DNA of 32,873 nucleotides from IMG/VR virus record IMGVR_UViG_3300049167_000224, positions 1 through 32,873 of that record; one strand, 5' to 3'. The translations under genes were made by a program, and so were the position numbers. The DNA comes from a virus. Taxonomy: Duplodnaviria > Caudoviricetes. Within the stretch, counting starts at the first letter, position 1; each line of letters opens with the position of its first letter. This document shows, piece after piece, positions 1 to 20,586 of this stretch. The notes under the pieces are model-generated. The model saw nothing but the letters and a program-made list of their open reading frames with translations, was not told the DNA's origin and made no database searches.

Positions 1-711
1 TTACTCAATATCTTCTGGATACATCTCATTCAAAGTCTTTTGTAGCAATTGCAAATCAAAACCCCGCTTTATCAACAAGACACAATTCGCATTAGCCTCC
101 ATATAGTCCGCTACTTTTTCACAAATCTCATCTGTATGCTTGCTGGATCGAATGCCAAGCAATTTATAATCCTTCATGTAAGAGAGATCATACATATTTG
201 CTACTGTTTTCGATGCTGCCACAGCTATAGCACCTCCAGCTTTGATTTGGTTGATGAATTCATTCCATCCACTCTTACGGAGATTTCTGGGGCAATTTTT
301 TCCCGTCCATTTATTGTGTTGAACTACATTGCTAATAGGAATGCTGTATTTCTTCATAAGGAATTGTACAAGCCAGACAGCATTTTGTTTGGTCTTCTCG
401 AAATCGCCATCTGCATTTACACACAACTCAATAGAAATACTTTCTCTATTACCTTCCCCTTTTGATCCATCACCGTTCGCCCAAGCAACCTCATTTGTGG
501 GTATGCTCTGCCAGATTTCGCTTTGATCCACGGAAAAATGCCAACTAGCGGTTCTGACATTTCCTGATGCCTGTAATCTTGCATGAGCTTCTGCATCTGC
601 ACCATTTTTTATATTGTCTGTTTCGTGTATTGTGATCCAATTTGGCTTCATCGCTATCTTTGGTCTTGTCTTTGTCAGTGTTGCTGGTATTAATTTCTGT
701 TTTATTTCCAT
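1..711 (-). CDS. Endolysin, N-acetylmuramoyl-L-alanine amidase (Amidase_2, XlyA/CwlA-like) with unrecognised C-terminal domain
   Basis: Motifs ITIHET, ASWHFSVD, SISIELC, VVQH..W.GKNCP; SD AGGAG; end of late operon. Confidence 0.93.
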   Translation of the reverse strand: MEIKQKLIPATLTKTRPKIAMKPNWITIHETDNIKNGADAEAHARLQASGNVRTASWHFSVDQSEIWQSIPTNEVAWANGDGSKGEGNRESISIELCVNADGDFEKTKQNAVWLVQFLMKKYSIPISNVVQHNKWTGKNCPRNLRKSGWNEFINQIKAGGAIAVAASKTVANMYDLSYMKDYKLLGIRSSKHTDEICEKVADYMEANANCVLLIKRGFDLQLLQKTLNEMYPEDIE

Positions 712-1270
712 TGGTGTTCTCTCCTACTTGAATTGAAATAAGCGACTCCTCAGAGGGAATCGCTTTTACTTCTGTTATCGGTGAACTTATTGAAACGAAA
801 TAAACCGGATCAGAGGGTTTGGTAGGTTCCTCTGGTTCCGGTTCACTCGGTTCATTCGGTTTAGATGGCTCTGTGGGCTTCTGTGGTGTTGCTGATGAGC
901 CTTCATCCTGTTCTATAGGCTTTGGTTTTGATGGCTGTTTTCGTTCTTTTGTTGGCTTTGTGGTGGAGGTAGAAACACTCCCAAGATTGCGATTGCTAAT
1001 CCGATTAGATATAGTATTTGTTCCTGATAGTGACCCACTACCTCCTCGATCTGATACCCGAACAAACTTGCTATCTTTATCACGAATAAGGATACTACTG
1101 ATAGTACCGATACCCAAAACGCTCGATCTCTCCATTCGGGGTGCTTGTTCAGCCATTTGATGATCACTTTGCTTTCCTCCCTGCGGATAATTTGCGCCTA
1201 AAACGAGTAATAGGACCACCATCATCAACGGGATTAGGTGGAATCTTATCTTCTCCATTGTCCGATTCAA
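545..1270 (-). CDS. Overprinted 241-aa protein with N-terminal signal/anchor and Pro/Glu/Lys-rich linker
   Basis: SD GGAGG (1282-1278) 7 nt before TTG; KIR plus hydrophobic LIPLMMVVLLLVLGA; KPTEPSKPNEPSEPEPEEP repeats fill the 712-912 gap between holin and endolysin. Confidence 0.6.
   Translation of the reverse strand: MNRTMEKIRFHLIPLMMVVLLLVLGANYPQGGKQSDHQMAEQAPRMERSSVLGIGTISSILIRDKDSKFVRVSDRGGSGSLSGTNTISNRISNRNLGSVSTSTTKPTKERKQPSKPKPIEQDEGSSATPQKPTEPSKPNEPSEPEPEEPTKPSDPVYFVSISSPITEVKAIPSEESLISIQVGENTNGNKTEINTSNTDKDKTKDSDEAKLDHNTRNRQYKKWCRCRSSCKITGIRKCQNR
913..1167 (-). CDS. Putative holin, 84 aa, two TM segments
   Basis: Two hydrophobic helices, polar C-tail, GGAGG SD, GTGA overlap with upstream gene, upstream of endolysin. 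Confidence 0.75.
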   Translation of the reverse strand: MIIKWLNKHPEWRDRAFWVSVLSVVSLFVIKIASLFGYQIEEVVGHYQEQILYLIGLAIAILGVFLPPPQSQQKNENSHQNQSL

Positions 1271-1574
1271 AGTGTTCCCTCCCTTCTATCAAGAGAGTTT
1301 CTGCTTTTTTAAGACTTCTTTTATCTATTACTTGGTCATTTTCCGATTCAAAAATCCATTTAAACCAATCAATCAAAGTATGATAGAATGTTTCTCGCTT
1401 CTCATATTTCGCTGCATCTTCTTCGAAATGTTCCTTCATTTTTTGATACATTTCTTTGATATCATTGTCTTTTCGTTTAATTGCATCAGCAGCCCACCAT
1501 ACCACAATGATTAAAAAGGTAGGTAAGCTATACGGGGATTGTGAAATTAACTCCGATAATTGAACGAGATCCAT
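1164..1574 (-). CDS. Lysis-cassette membrane protein (one N-terminal TM plus coiled coil; holin/antiholin-like)
   Basis: TM LPTFLIIVVWWAA followed by charged helix; position; SD GAGGAG. Confidence 0.6.
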   Translation of the reverse strand: MDLVQLSELISQSPYSLPTFLIIVVWWAADAIKRKDNDIKEMYQKMKEHFEEDAAKYEKRETFYHTLIDWFKWIFESENDQVIDKRSLKKAETLLIEGREHFESDNGEDKIPPNPVDDGGPITRFRRKLSAGRKAK

Positions 1575-2588: not shown

Positions 2589-3761
2589 TCACCTCTTTTC
2601 TATTTTTCCAACTCTACCTTGCAGACGTCTATAATCACCGAACAATCGAAAGGTAGTACCAACGCCAGGCGTTCCAATTGTTGGTATAATGGTTTCCCCT
2701 TTTTCATCGAGCACGATCTGAACGGAACGAATCACATCTTGTAAGATTTCCCCGTTTACTTCTGCAGTAGCTCTATCACCAAGTTTATAATCGATCATAA
2801 ATTGAGATCCCTCTACATCAAGTGGGTAAAGCTCAAACTCTGCTTTTTCGGTTCGTTCCTCCAATTCGTTGTAAAGTGCTTGGAGCAGTTCGCTTTCAAC
2901 GCTGGTCTGTCTCTGATCCAAGAAATATTCGATGGTGCCATACAGCAAACGACTAGGCTCGTCACCAGTACCTACAAAGTAGCGAGCTTCTTCTTCACCG
3001 CCACCACCACAAAGGATATAGTTTCCCTCTGGAGCTTCTACATAATATCGATAGCCTGCTAGATTACGTCTTTCTTTGGAAAATACAACGGTAGATGTCA
3101 GGTCTTCTGGTTCGTAAACTTCAAATAGCAGAACAGGGATGCCAAAAAACTCATCATAGGATTGGATCACTCGAAATCCTAACCCAGAAGACAAAGCAGC
3201 TTCTTGCAACTTCTCAATCAAGTTGTTATATCGGCTTCGCACGGTAATGTTTTGACCCTTTTCTCCATCTACAGTAGTCGCTAATAGAGGGATTGCACGA
3301 GAAGGAACCGCCAAGTATCCTGCATTGTTTTCAACGAGATGAAGCATGCATGTCTCTGCTGCTCCTGTGAAAACATCGTATCCGACACCAATCCCTCGGT
3401 GAAAGTTGTACACTCCATCGGGGTTGGGAGGTATAGCCATTCTAGTTGCTAAAAGTCCTGTATCATCTATGCCACCTGTTGTAAAATTGCCGTCTTCGCT
3501 GATCCAATCCTCGTCCATGTCTATGCTCCGAATCGGACCGCTGAAGATGATTTCCCCATCCTTGGTAACAATAATGCCACCAAGCCCGTTTCCCTCCCTT
3601 CGGACTTGTAGAAGAGTGCGAATTGTTTCGGTTTCTTCTGGTGGTATTTCTAACAACCATTTGCTTACATCATTAAAGTTCATATTGATGGTTAACTTTG
3701 TAAAATTGATTATTGGAGCAATCCTATCGAGTGCAGTATCCCGAATCCATATTTCATACAT
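2589..3761 (-). CDS. Siphovirus Gp37-like (ReqiPepy6-type) minor tail/hub protein
   Basis: Motifs FNDVSKW.L, GGGGEEEAR, E.FLDQR, DYKLGD; follows Dit. Confidence 0.8.
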   Translation of the reverse strand: MYEIWIRDTALDRIAPIINFTKLTINMNFNDVSKWLLEIPPEETETIRTLLQVRREGNGLGGIIVTKDGEIIFSGPIRSIDMDEDWISEDGNFTTGGIDDTGLLATRMAIPPNPDGVYNFHRGIGVGYDVFTGAAETCMLHLVENNAGYLAVPSRAIPLLATTVDGEKGQNITVRSRYNNLIEKLQEAALSSGLGFRVIQSYDEFFGIPVLLFEVYEPEDLTSTVVFSKERRNLAGYRYYVEAPEGNYILCGGGGEEEARYFVGTGDEPSRLLYGTIEYFLDQRQTSVESELLQALYNELEERTEKAEFELYPLDVEGSQFMIDYKLGDRATAEVNGEILQDVIRSVQIVLDEKGETIIPTIGTPGVGTTFRLFGDYRRLQGRVGKIEKR

Positions 3762-14450: not shown

Positions 14451-15719
14451 TCAAATCTTATATCGTCTCACAAAGTAATTGACTGCATAGCGGAATTCAT
14501 CCATCGAGTGGTTCCAATCGTCCACGGGCTTTCCTGTTGTCTCGTTACGACAATACATCCCCACTTCTTTGATAAAGTCGTAGTGATCAAATTTATCTGT
14601 TTCGATGAGAAAGAACTGTCCATCATTTAACATACTCTGTGCCCGTTCGATCCCCACCTCGATACCCTTCACGCTGCCTTTGATATCATGAGCATTGTTA
14701 TCTGCTGTTCGAGTATCAATGCCGATCAGATGCAGCTCTTCCCGTAAAGATTTACAAGCAGGATCTACAAAAAATTCACTGTACATCATCTCGTATTTCT
14801 TCCTGCACCACTTTACAAAGGATTGGATTTCCCTGGCATAAATACTCATCGCTTTTGTTTGTCCCGTTTCCTTCCCACTGTGATAATAATGTGCAACTCG
14901 ATTCAAACGAAACTTCCCCTCATAACGAGTGACAATGTTACAACTCACGCTGGTAGCATCTGATTGTCCACCATCTGCACTGAAATACATCTCATAGGGT
15001 TTACCCAGTAAAGAAGGTGCAATATGTGTATCCATATCAAACATGCTGTATATAACCCCTTCAGGCATCACACGCTGACCCAACCAATCCCGTTTATACA
15101 AATAGGGATTCTTTTCTAGTGTTGATTTGATCTCCGCTTTCCGTTCTTCACTGATAATGGGATTGTCTCGGATGCTCCAATGTTTCCATCGTGTGTATTG
15201 CACCTCGAACACTTCTTTGATGACCGGATGATTGGGAGCAGGTGGGTTGAGATCCGCAAGGTGATAACGCATTTTGGCTGCAAAGGTACGACGAAAACAT
15301 TCTTGCACCATATCAGGATGAAGGAGATTAATCTCACAAAAAACCACACTTCCTAATGACATCCCTGTGATAGCTTTGACACTATCTACTTTGCCCCCGC
15401 CTTTGTAATAGACCTTCTTTAATCCGGTTGGGGTATGGATCTCCAAGTGATCCCCTAGTCGATCGCTTTTTGGCTTAGCGAGATCCCCGAAGATATGCAG
15501 TAACCCAGTTCCATCACCATCCACAAACAGGCGGTAGGATTGTTCTTGGTTATATGCAACGATCAAGTGATTCTCATCTGGTGTAACCGTCAAATAATAA
15601 GCAAATCGAAAATGACCTGCAGTTGTCTTTCCAGATCGTGGAGTTCCTTCGTTCACTTCCAAAGTGTGACTGAATGGAGCTCGAATAATTTCCTTTTGCT
15701 TTGGTGAAAACTCAATCAT
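14451..15719 (-). CDS. terL: Terminase large subunit
   Basis: Walker A GTPRSGKT, Walker B VVFCE, nuclease DGG and H.MDE.RY motifs. Confidence 0.93.
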   Translation of the reverse strand: MIEFSPKQKEIIRAPFSHTLEVNEGTPRSGKTTAGHFRFAYYLTVTPDENHLIVAYNQEQSYRLFVDGDGTGLLHIFGDLAKPKSDRLGDHLEIHTPTGLKKVYYKGGGKVDSVKAITGMSLGSVVFCEINLLHPDMVQECFRRTFAAKMRYHLADLNPPAPNHPVIKEVFEVQYTRWKHWSIRDNPIISEERKAEIKSTLEKNPYLYKRDWLGQRVMPEGVIYSMFDMDTHIAPSLLGKPYEMYFSADGGQSDATSVSCNIVTRYEGKFRLNRVAHYYHSGKETGQTKAMSIYAREIQSFVKWCRKKYEMMYSEFFVDPACKSLREELHLIGIDTRTADNNAHDIKGSVKGIEVGIERAQSMLNDGQFFLIETDKFDHYDFIKEVGMYCRNETTGKPVDDWNHSMDEFRYAVNYFVRRYKI

Positions 15720-16188
15720 CCTCTTTCACCGCTTTGATCAATGCTTCCATGAGAGAAGTGTCCTTCGACACACCTTGGAGAAGTTTGGTCTTCTCCTTGA
15801 TATGCTCGGTCTCTGCCCTGGTCTTATCCAGACTAGCAACAACGTTGAATCGTTTCATCAAACTATCAATAGCCTTTATCCTCTGGTTGATGTCTGCCTC
15901 TTTGGTTTCCTTCTTGCCTGAAGGAGTTACTACGGTTTCCGTAGCTTCACCACGAGCAATACTGGTCAATAACTCCAATGCTTCGTCTGCGTCCATGATA
16001 CGCCTATCTTCATTTGATTTCAGACGCTCGTTTATATATGTTTTAATACTAAGTTTTTCTAAGTTTTGACTACCTTGCACATTCGGTTTTTTATAACCAG
16101 CACGCTTCGCTGCATCTGAAGCATTACCAGTCTCAATATAGTAATCACAAAAAGCCTTCTGTTTTGGTGTCAGTTTCACATGAATCAC
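15712..16188 (-). CDS. terS: Terminase small subunit
   Basis: LTPKQKAFCDYYIETGNA..AA.RAGY Terminase_2 signature; start may be GTG 16179. Confidence 0.93.
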   Translation of the reverse strand: MIHVKLTPKQKAFCDYYIETGNASDAAKRAGYKKPNVQGSQNLEKLSIKTYINERLKSNEDRRIMDADEALELLTSIARGEATETVVTPSGKKETKEADINQRIKAIDSLMKRFNVVASLDKTRAETEHIKEKTKLLQGVSKDTSLMEALIKAVKEDD

Positions 16189-16215: not shown

Positions 16216-16938
16216 CTACTCATTTGGCTTATGAATCTTGTTTTGTGGATTCGCTAAGTATGCATTGAATTGAGCATATACAGAATGATAACCAATTGCG
16301 TAAGCTCCACTTACAGGATTCCATGCTTCGTAACATCTGGCTGCTCTTTTAATCTTATCTTTCTGTGCTGTTGTAGCTGTATAAATGCTACCTGGTCGAC
16401 TTAGAGCCCAATCAGATCGAGCAATATAGAATCTCGCATCGGTCACAATTCCAGCGTTGTACAACTCTAATAATGCCTGTCCGCTATATTTATGAGAATC
16501 GCTTGTATCGTGATAACTCATTGCTTTGTAAGATACTCCTGCTGTTCCATATTCATTTACATATTCCATCATGAGCGCTTTTACTGAATCTTTTGTAACT
16601 GGATCACCTTCTGAATCTATAGCCCGTAAATGTATATTCTCCGGTGGAACTCCTAGTTGCCCTAATGCGGATTGAAATTCTCTATTTCTAGCTGCAGAAA
16701 AATCATCATCGGTTAATTCTGTATATCCTTCTAAATATGGGTTATGTGCTGTTCCCCAATATGCGGATGTTCCGTCACCAATGAGTACATCTTGGACAAA
16801 AGAACCTTTCCCAGAAGTGTAGAGAACTACTATTACCTCTCGTCCTGCTACTAGGTGATTCAAAATATCAATAGCTGCCTGTAGGGTTTCATCATCTTGA
16901 TGAGGTATAAAGAATATTGCTGGACCTAACATCAACAT
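16216..16938 (-). CDS. PIG-L/LmbE-family deacetylase
   Basis: PHQDDE metal-binding motif, R..EF..AL..LGV, H....SH. Confidence 0.85.
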   Translation of the reverse strand: MLMLGPAIFFIPHQDDETLQAAIDILNHLVAGREVIVVLYTSGKGSFVQDVLIGDGTSAYWGTAHNPYLEGYTELTDDDFSAARNREFQSALGQLGVPPENIHLRAIDSEGDPVTKDSVKALMMEYVNEYGTAGVSYKAMSYHDTSDSHKYSGQALLELYNAGIVTDARFYIARSDWALSRPGSIYTATTAQKDKIKRAARCYEAWNPVSGAYAIGYHSVYAQFNAYLANPQNKIHKPNE

Positions 16939-19509: not shown

Positions 19510-20586
19510 TTATATCAGACGCTTTGCAATCTCATAAATAACAGTTGTAGTAACTGAATTCCCAGCTTGTTTATAAAGTTGCGAATCCTTCAAACCTGTT
19601 TCTTTTGCCTTATAAAATGCCCAATCTGGAAATGCCTGTAGCCTCCAACATTCCAACGGTGTGAGCTTCCTTACACGATAACCATCATATACCCCATGAG
19701 TATCCTGTGCTGTCAGAGTAAACATTGGTTCACCATCTGTTTTCATCCTCCGACCGTTTTGTCTCTTTTTTTCTCTTTCAGGTGTAAGCACTGCAATATG
19801 TGTTCTTTTGGCTTTTTTCAGTGAACTTATCCCTTTGCTATAATTCGCATCTAAACAATATGCTAAACCTTCACCAGTAGATAATTGAGTAGGTACAAGG
19901 TATAGCCCAGTTTTTGCTCCTCCACCTCCAGCTTCCGCTTTCAATGTCCTTGCTAATCCCTTTGAATCGTAAACCCGAAATGCATCTGCAGCTGGACCGT
20001 TTATTTGTTGGAGAGCAACCGTTCCGCCTTTTCCTGTGATAGGAAATACTTGTCGGGTACGGTGTCTTCTAGAATGTCCGATAATGAAGACCCTCTTCCT
20101 TCGTTGTGGAACTCCTCCATGAATCGAGCTGTCAAGCACTTGCCATTCCGCATCATACCCCAATTCATCCAACGTTCGGAGGATAACCTCAAACGTAGAG
20201 CCTTCGTCGTGATCAAGCAATCCTTTGACGTTCTCAAGGAGTAGATACTTGGGTTGGAGAATAGAGGCAAACCTTGCAATTTCAAAAAAGAGTGTACCTC
20301 TAACATCACTGAAACCTCCCCGTTTTCCCGCCACTGAGAAAGCTTGGCATGGAAATCCTCCACAGATAATGTTAATTGGTCCTCGCTCTCTTCCAAGTAA
20401 TCGAATATCGTCATCTGTGACGCTGGTAATGTCATGAGCTGTCCACTCTCCCTCTGGTTGATGTATGGCTTTATATGCTTGTCTTGCGTATTTGTCTATT
20501 TCTACCCATCCGGCTGTTTGATTCCCGGCAGCTTCCATACCAAAGCGAAAACCGCCGATTCCTGAGAAGAGATCAAGCACTCTCAT
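19510..20586 (-). CDS. dcm: DNA (cytosine-5) methyltransferase, orphan
   Basis: Motifs I DLFSGIGG, IV GGFPCQAFS, VI ENVKG, VIII Q.RKRVF, IX RKLTPLECWRLQ.FP, X GNSV. Confidence 0.96.
   Translation of the reverse strand: MRVLDLFSGIGGFRFGMEAAGNQTAGWVEIDKYARQAYKAIHQPEGEWTAHDITSVTDDDIRLLGRERGPINIICGGFPCQAFSVAGKRGGFSDVRGTLFFEIARFASILQPKYLLLENVKGLLDHDEGSTFEVILRTLDELGYDAEWQVLDSSIHGGVPQRRKRVFIIGHSRRHRTRQVFPITGKGGTVALQQINGPAADAFRVYDSKGLARTLKAEAGGGGAKTGLYLVPTQLSTGEGLAYCLDANYSKGISSLKKAKRTHIAVLTPEREKKRQNGRRMKTDGEPMFTLTAQDTHGVYDGYRVRKLTPLECWRLQAFPDWAFYKAKETGLKDSQLYKQAGNSVTTTVIYEIAKRLI
20001..20435 (-). CDS. Nested out-of-frame 144-aa protein, putative second subunit of the cytosine MTase
   Basis: Same strand, different frame, fully inside dcm; ends SLSDILEDTVPDKYFLSQEKAERLL, a segment I recognise from phage C5 MTases. 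Confidence 0.65.
   Translation of the reverse strand: MTLPASQMTIFDYLEESEDQLTLSVEDFHAKLSQWRENGEVSVMLEVHSFLKLQGLPLFSNPSIYSLRTSKDCLITTKALRLRLSSERWMNWGMMRNGKCLTARFMEEFHNEGRGSSLSDILEDTVPDKYFLSQEKAERLLSNK

Follow-up and report, generated by a model that had tools for sequence, protein, structure and literature searches.

In Staphylococcus phage 187 the holin gene is embedded out of frame in the endolysin gene. A holin embedded in the same manner is mentioned for Lactococcus phage phiVML3 (PMC3111421). An additional protein of the lysis cassette, LysZ, carries a single transmembrane (TM) segment and a proline-rich linker and is needed for lysis, unless a membrane glycopolymer is lost (10.1101/2025.06.24.661397); that paper suggests lipoteichoic acids as a possible similar barrier in Firmicutes, with no factor named. 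Here we describe a gene in the virus record IMGVR_UViG_3300049167_000224, a 32.9-kb temperate siphophage-type record (32,873 nucleotides, nt; the whole stretch is hereafter called the window), whose late genes lie on the minus strand. The last late genes in the window encode a 136-amino-acid (aa) protein (1164–1574), an 84-aa holin (913–1167) and a 236-aa Amidase_2 endolysin (1–711). Across these three genes runs a fourth, overprinted gene of 241 aa with a TTG start (545..1270, minus strand), which is kept in two relatives, L003 (249 aa) and L009 (251 aa), and has nine more homologues known as proteins. As in phages 187 and phiVML3, a phage of a probable Gram-positive host encodes a holin-like product inside another lysis gene; there the outer gene is the endolysin, whereas here it encodes a fourth, uncharacterised protein, predicted to be membrane-bound, that overlaps both flanking genes.

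A coding frame overprinted on three lysis genes

The overprinted frame is bounded by in-frame stops at positions 1288 and 547. With the 136-aa gene it has 107 nt in common; it encloses the whole holin gene, which sits in its +1 frame, traverses the 201-bp gap between holin and amidase, and terminates 167 nt into the amidase. An earlier note on this DNA had described such a same-strand frame, beginning inside the 136-aa gene and staying open through the holin into the endolysin, and this description is confirmed. The other two frames of the gap contain 4 and 5 stops. The TTG is preceded by GGGAGG with a spacing of 7 nt, and this ribosome-binding site (RBS; 1278..1285, minus strand) lies inside the 136-aa gene, where it is read as E-G-R. 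Its duplex energy of −12.1 kcal/mol, computed like the other values against an anti-Shine–Dalgarno motif, is the second strongest among 17 starts tested, compared with −10.9 for the holin, −7.3 for the amidase and −10.9 kcal/mol for the major capsid gene, in agreement with the strong, well-spaced start signal proposed earlier. A Logan contig from run X1 (depth 243), which may be the source of the window DNA, is identical over 1–2600, so an assembly slip is unlikely; on the grounds of this deep contig and the two relatives, assembly error was rejected as the origin of the frame. The possibility that the gap sequence derives from a frameshifted holin tail was also rejected: the frame opens at a conserved start that belongs to it alone, and the helix that it encodes before the holin is reached is under selection.

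A profile of the amidase C-terminal domain retrieved seven loci. Two of them, L003 and L009, contain the same cassette with the same TTG, RBS, reading frames and 201-bp gap, and their overprinted proteins are 39% and 49% identical, respectively, to that of the window; the frame, whose integrity in close relatives had been proposed as a check, is intact in both. A third locus, L004, is also from a phage; its cassette contains an XhlA-like gene (weak Pfam match) and another holin and has neither the gap nor the overprinted frame. The remaining four loci are amidase genes on chromosomes, with no cassette around them. A profile of the three overprinted proteins gave nine matches at E ≤ 0.001 among 1.84 billion representatives (E from 4e-75 to 4e-21), which are 26–66% identical to the window protein and stand in the databases as automatic gene calls. 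Most of them start within the hydrophobic stretch, as would be expected if gene callers had picked an internal start. DNA sequence was obtained for L003 and L009, and the other nine are protein records. The start signal is also fixed in the gene that it overlaps: E-G-R (the RBS) and F-E (carrying the TTG) are invariant in 6/6 homologues of the 136-aa protein, and the three homologues present as protein records only retain the E-G-R and F-E residues that spell RBS and TTG. In these homologues K, E, Q, M or W occupies 1 of the 18 residues at which the overprinted helix needs T-ending codons, versus 34–39% in the protein body.

Selection was assessed in three pairwise comparisons among the window, L003 and L009, and for the gap and its motif the second value of each triplet refers to the window–L009 pair. 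In the gap, substitutions at codon positions 1/2/3 of the overprinted frame number 31/8/37, 15/6/15 and 23/6/36, and the ratio of nonsynonymous to synonymous substitution rates (dN/dS) in this frame is 0.42 (p = 0.003), 0.84 (p = 0.46) and 0.24 (p = 1e-5). The helix region gives 0.31 (p = 0.015), 0.25 (p = 0.004) and 0.49 (p = 0.37), and helix and gap together have dN/dS values of 0.24–0.49 in five of six comparisons, four of them significant. For the conserved motif encoded in the gap, the values are 0.40, 1.11 and 0.20. Over the tail that it shares with the helix, the 136-aa gene's own frame has ratios of nonsynonymous to synonymous differences (pN/pS) of 1.52, 1.25 and 0.08; compared with the helix values, this indicates that the overprinted helix dominates in the distant pairs, whereas in the close pair constraint on the 136-aa tail persists. 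Over the holin, dN/dS of the overprinted frame is about 1 and pN/pS of the holin frame is 0.67, 0.66 and 0.12, while over the amidase the overprinted frame reaches 1.2–4.5 and the amidase frame 0.22, 0.25 and 0.09. In these two segments the overlapped genes dominate, with stops and T-ending codons nonetheless purged.

This purging is visible in all three cassettes; P below is the probability, under synonymous recoding, of an absence of stops in the overprinted frame. The holin segment has no stop in 3/3 cassettes (P = 0.005 for the window, 0.0014 and 0.0002 for the others) versus 7 in a control holin, and the first 54 amidase codons have none in 3/3 (P = 0.0006 for the window, 0.0003 and 0.0003 for the others) versus 6, 6 and 7 in three controls, from which L007 and L008, with replaced or broken amidase N-termini, were excluded. 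T-ending codons make up 7–12% of the nested holins, compared with 37% of the control holin and 30–41% of seven other window genes, and 15–17% of the first 54 amidase codons, compared with 29–35% further along these genes. With the holin sequence and the absence of stops taken as given, the spacer encoded over the holin contains 1 aromatic residue versus about 7.5 expected and no Cys versus 3.4–3.8 expected. Because these selection measures partly cover one another, the three cassettes descend from a common ancestor and the null relies on the codon usage of the window, the P values are not to be multiplied. Among 22 other window genes, the longest stop-free same-strand alternative frame spans 164 codons; this overlap corresponds to a 144-aa frame (20001–20435, minus strand) inside a DNA methyltransferase-like gene. 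The sequence comparisons confirm that the overprinted frame behaves as a coding frame under selection, beyond what chance would produce.

Searches beyond these relatives were negative within their scope. Single-sequence searches with the 241-aa frame returned none of 758 candidates, nothing in viral contigs and no usable Atlas match, and the 136-aa profile gave no confirmed locus in viral, genome and metagenome scans, with 0/53 in order-level genomes. Overprint profiles matched 6/29 and 5/53 genomes, in all cases with the C-terminal part only and with internal stops; matches overlapping L005–L008 were rejected as off-frame reads of amidases. A DNA pattern of the start site found four loci, one of which is L003 and three unrelated; L001 and L002, considered as cassette relatives, are unrelated too. 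Comparison of runs X1 and X2 with L009 yielded no additional cassette. The overprinted protein has no match in PDB sequences, plasmids, 50,697 phage records or Rfam, and only sub-threshold, composition-type matches in Pfam, PHROGs and NCBIfam (no PHROG match under E 0.004). The view that this is a conserved gene, nested over three lysis genes, under selection and without a match to a known family, is supported.

Anatomy of the overprinted protein

The protein is predicted to consist of an N-terminal helix, a disordered spacer of 99–128 residues, a conserved motif of about 30 residues and a variable tail. The hydrophobic helix (residues 8–26; 1193..1249, minus strand) is predicted to be a signal anchor with the N-terminus inside and the C-terminus outside (N-in/C-out). 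Its 19-residue mean hydropathy is 2.27–2.43 in the three proteins, compared with 0.70–0.86 for the next-best 19-residue segment, and the net charge is +1/+2 over residues 1–9 and −1/−1/0 on the C-side. Both AlphaFold2 (AF2) models, at low confidence, place the sole helix at residues 3–26 and none after residue 26. A Cys following the hydrophobic stretch as a lipobox is absent from 12/12 members, and the window protein has Cys only at 224–238.

The holin DNA encodes the hydrophilic spacer, residues 36–119, which is rich in Ser, Thr and Pro. The earlier note had placed a Ser/Thr-rich stretch in the gap, and this placement did not hold, as the stretch lies mostly over the holin. The KP/EP repeats that it had located there do fall in the gap, in its first half only, as a Pro-rich segment (residues 120–153; 812..913, minus strand) whose length varies through in-frame indels; the second half encodes what that note had missed, the most conserved motif of the protein. 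This motif (residues 154–183; 722..811, minus strand) begins DPVYFVSISSPITEVKAIP, shows alternating hydrophobic residues and is present in 11/12 members, always 99–128 residues from the helix; the twelfth member ends before it. V156 is conserved in 11/11 members, and P155, Y157, T163, V168 and P172 in 10/11 each, and the 45 residues before the motif contain 8–17 Pro in all eleven. We consider the motif likely to be the functional head, with a predicted beta-like character.

The tail, encoded over the first 55 amidase codons (545..711, minus strand), is hydrophilic and mostly basic; stops are purged from it and its sequence is not conserved. Across the family it measures 16–78 aa and is net positive, although some records may be incomplete, and with this variation an essential role of the full tail length was rejected. 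The tail matches the start of this amidase type in 7/12 members, a different amidase type, judged by a motif, in one and neither in three, so a partner specific to this amidase was also rejected. In addition, 11/12 members can encode the W..R..W signature of the holin in register.

Possible roles of the overprinted gene

As our leading reading, held tentatively and a little short of an even call, we propose that this conserved overprinted gene encodes a membrane-anchored (N-in/C-out) accessory lysis factor of the late lysis cassette. What favours a lysis role is that the gene is found together with the lysis cassette, independently of the tail genes. Four proteins of the lysis region are common to the window and the L003 record (39 kb, complete), as are two regulators, a PIG-L-like protein and a portion of the tape measure, but the capsid, distal-tail and two minor-tail proteins are not; L004 shares distal-tail and minor-tail proteins with the window at 47–77% identity, yet lacks the overprinted gene. 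By this distribution the gene is part of a mobile lysis cassette, and a structural role in the virion was rejected, as its occurrence follows neither the head nor the tail genes.

Under this reading, the protein would be translated from the late mRNA along with holins and amidase; the lack of a sigma-70-like promoter on its strand in 1–2000, in a consensus scan only, fits late-operon expression. No RNA run was found among the listed sequencing runs that carry the sequence. Sec would insert the protein by residues 8–26 with the C-terminus outside, as the charge bias suggests. That the anchor is retained and not cleaved seems rather probable, because the long unconstrained spacer would be useful only if tethered and no typical cleavage site is visible. 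The aromatic-poor, Cys-free spacer of 99–128 residues and the Pro-rich rod would then form a disordered tether into or across the wall, about 30–45 nm long when fully stretched according to per-residue lengths, and similar in this to a Firmicute wall. More speculatively, the tip motif might bind or self-assemble on a wall or membrane polymer (teichoic or lipoteichoic acid, or a surface layer) and, after holin and amidase have acted, weaken this support other than peptidoglycan, in the way that LysZ acts on lipoglycans in corynebacteria. The holin is a member of an old family and would be the older gene, which suggests that the spacer is the overprint; the tether could have been overprinted there because only length and hydrophilicity are needed. 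We regard it as possible, though doubtful, that the gene stands for a lysis protein of a new class in Firmicute phages: a tether across the wall that arose by overprinting on an old holin gene, with a tip motif that takes apart a barrier of teichoic acid or surface layer left after peptidoglycan digestion.

Several observations weigh against the proposed lysis factor. AF2 gives no folded domain or long helix (mean predicted local distance difference test score 39.7 and 46.9), and the helical body of LysZ would accordingly be missing here. The hydrophobic stretch has only 16–19 residues and ends in Gly-Ala, which leaves room for signal-peptide cleavage. The tail-related L004 has a lysis cassette without the gene, which indicates that the gene is not universally required. 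Within the gap, the window–L009 pair gives no sign of selection (dN/dS 0.84, and 1.11 for the motif); synonymous differences there are few (proportion, pS, 0.22), probably owing to a recent shared tract and the shared hairpin. L003 and L009 are 72% identical to each other, so that the three stop tests are not independent. Finally, the host is only inferred: the amidase C-terminal domain is 64–69% identical to copies in three Shimazuella genomes, and these relatives suggest that the host is probably Shimazuella-like, Bacillota (Firmicutes), with an envelope that we take to be monoderm.

Among the alternatives, a lysis-timing regulator survives best, although we consider it unlikely. Here an antiholin or sensor similar to T4 RI would bind, through its helix, the 136-aa protein, likely a BhlA-type second holin component, or the holin, and its outer arm would sense a cue that delays or releases triggering. 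The purifying selection on the helix region would fit, as would the company of the gene: it accompanies the 136-aa type of partner, with a start signal invariant in 6/6 such proteins, and is absent from the one cassette seen with an XhlA-like partner (L004, a weak Pfam match). Nesting would also fix the ratio of the overprinted product to the holin. Nevertheless, the small two-helix holin has little outside surface, and the most conserved motif lies about 100–130 residues off the membrane, far from the holin loops. The helix is strongly hydrophobic, unlike signal-anchor-release segments, which are weakly hydrophobic. RI itself provides the precedent (PMC6116005).

Late receptor masking or exclusion is a less probable role, in which the arm would cover the phage receptor or block DNA entry in the dying cell, sparing progeny from loss on debris and barring competitors; T5 Llp offers a parallel for late masking. 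A surface-reaching tether with a small conserved tip would suit this, and late expression would suit the protection of progeny. However, the gene is shared with a phage of different tail and capsid and is absent from one with close tail genes, and no promoter-like site appears on its strand in the consensus scan, suggesting no expression in the lysogen. The earlier proposal of an accessory lysis or superinfection factor is thus narrowed: lysis is favoured, and superinfection exclusion of the lysogen type is disfavoured because of the late-operon position and the lack of a sigma-70-like promoter on the strand in 1–2000.

We give about as little weight to a cleaved secreted peptide, for which residues 1–25/26 would be a Sec signal peptide and the product would act in the wall or medium, for example on filament neighbours or matrix. 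The basic n-region, the core of 14–16 residues and the invariant Gly25 do resemble a signal peptide; signal peptidase sites follow the −3/−1 rule, and inspection by eye reveals no Ala-X-Ala site and no polar c-region, with Val26 in 2/12 members. Moreover, it is hard to see what purpose so long an N-terminal spacer, free of constraint, would serve after release, and the invariance of L24–Y28 may come from the overlapping gene and the holin RBS.

A translational device is very improbable. According to this explanation the protein would be incidental, and ribosomes on the frame would unwind a hairpin ahead of the amidase gene, or partly hinder initiation there, and so set the holin-to-amidase ratio. 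A 10-bp hairpin (740..765, minus strand) indeed lies directly upstream of the amidase RBS, within the motif-coding DNA; L009 has the same hairpin and L003 a different one at a similar place, so that 3/3 cassettes have one, and it may protect or gate the amidase message. The frame is also open 54–72 codons into the amidase, where its sequence is unconstrained. A ribosome track would not need the amino-acid selection on helix and gap, nor would it account for a motif conserved in 11/12 proteins down to 26% overall identity and for the biased composition of the spacer. An unexpressed chance frame is scarcely conceivable in view of all the conservation and selection tests, even though the window, L003 and L009 frames (at full length and, for the window, from shorter starts) are absent from the protein collection.

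Neighbouring genes and described counterparts

The holin (913..1167, minus strand) is of the Phage_holin_1/phiLC3-like type and is nested in the +1 frame in 3/3 cassettes. The window protein scores 21.9 bits to PF04531, just below the cut-off of 22, and those of L003 and L009 score 26.6 and 25.1 bits, above it; in addition, the Atlas links the window holin to PF04531 clusters at 0.91, and the TIGR01598 cut-off of 39.7 is not reached. The 136-aa protein (1164..1574, minus strand) has a single predicted TM segment, and its last 35 codons are common to the overprinted gene. It has no Pfam match; phrog_1625, which we equate with BhlA/UviB, is matched by 4/6 of its homologues (best E 5.8e-5) and phrog_2429 by 3/6, in neither case by the window's own protein.

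The Amidase_2 endolysin (1..711, minus strand) has an unclassified C-terminal domain of about 65 aa (1–240, minus strand), without a Pfam, PHROG or NCBIfam match of its own and conserved in about 20 proteins, including stand-alone chromosomal Shimazuella amidases, which makes it a candidate new wall-binding domain. GGAGGT stands 9 nt ahead of an in-frame GTG at 222, in the linker before this domain (1–237, minus strand), and could yield a separate 73-aa product, as in two-polypeptide endolysins; the corresponding signals are weaker in L003 and L009, and none is obvious in L004–L008. Two Shimazuella amidase copies are altered: in L007:4758–5261 the N-terminus is replaced by a terminase-small-subunit-like start resembling window 15712–16188, and L008:4254–5252 is split by an insertion. 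In L004, which lacks the overprinted gene, it is the holin (3343–3597, plus strand) that reaches into the amidase, by about 10 codons and in the relative frame used by the overprinted tail. A PIG-L-like deacetylase gene precedes the terminase genes in the window (16216–16938, minus strand) and stands directly before the lysis cassette in L003 (1944–2702, plus strand) and L009. A membrane-anchored BLIP/DUF3862-like gene (weak matches) follows the amidase at L003:4392–4769 and L009:1982–2359. A nearby gene at L009:2920–3690, presumably ParA-like from its sequence, suggests a plasmid-like prophage.

Holin and endolysin are usually deemed sufficient for Firmicute phages, and a conserved, probably exported fourth cassette protein makes this question testable. 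The locus also represents an unusually clear case of overprinting, with one frame across three genes and a dominant constraint that changes by segment. Since automatic gene calling overlooks or shortens the overprinted gene, the holin–endolysin gaps of other Gram-positive phages merit re-inspection, and more genes hidden in a second frame over the holin may have been missed in their lysis cassettes.

In the full-text literature, with subscription journals mostly outside its coverage and papers represented in part, no account was found of this family or of an accessory membrane gene that encloses a holin, and no like arrangement appears in the available portions of PMC12294143 and PMC9327680. 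The protein appears to form a new family, with a putative function, in an overlap layout not found described. The composition of the cassette recalls SPbeta BhlA-BhlB-BlyA and PBSX XepA-XhlA-XhlB-XlyA, in which two holin-like genes accompany an N-acetylmuramoyl-L-alanine amidase and PBSX adds a fourth, accessory gene (PMC6834076); however, XepA and YomS are soluble pentamers encoded by separate genes, and the available text describes no overprinted anchored protein there (PMC6834076). T4 RI is likewise an exported, N-anchored protein linked to lysis, yet its periplasmic domain binds the periplasmic domain of the holin T, and neither domain has a counterpart here (PMC6116005). Lambda Rz/Rz1 likewise combine two lysis genes in a single stretch of DNA, where the inner one lies wholly within the gene for a membrane-anchored protein, in its +1 frame (PMC6116005, PMC3111421). 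The embedded gene here is a holin and not an outer-membrane lipoprotein, and unlike Rz/Rz1 and u-spanins, the overprinted protein lacks both a lipobox and a second anchor and is not predicted to form a coiled coil; its host is probably monoderm.

The closest counterpart is LysZ of corynephages and mycobacteriophages, which is also an extra single-TM protein of the holin–amidase cassette with its helix near the N-terminus (retention of the helix is predicted here) and a Pro-rich linker that leads to a small element at the C-terminus. The two differ in that the body of LysZ is long and alpha-helical, with a further helix at the C-terminus, whereas the overprinted protein is predicted to be disordered with a beta-like motif, and in that LysZ is drawn as a gene of its own in Actinomycetota phages, whereas the present gene is overprinted on a holin in a phage of a probable Firmicute host. 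Compared with LysZ by description only, the overprinted protein is, in our best reading, one that would work like LysZ without being a member of the LysZ family or a spanin; if it is indeed a wall-spanning tether of a new class, it would take in monoderms the place that spanins and LysZ have elsewhere.

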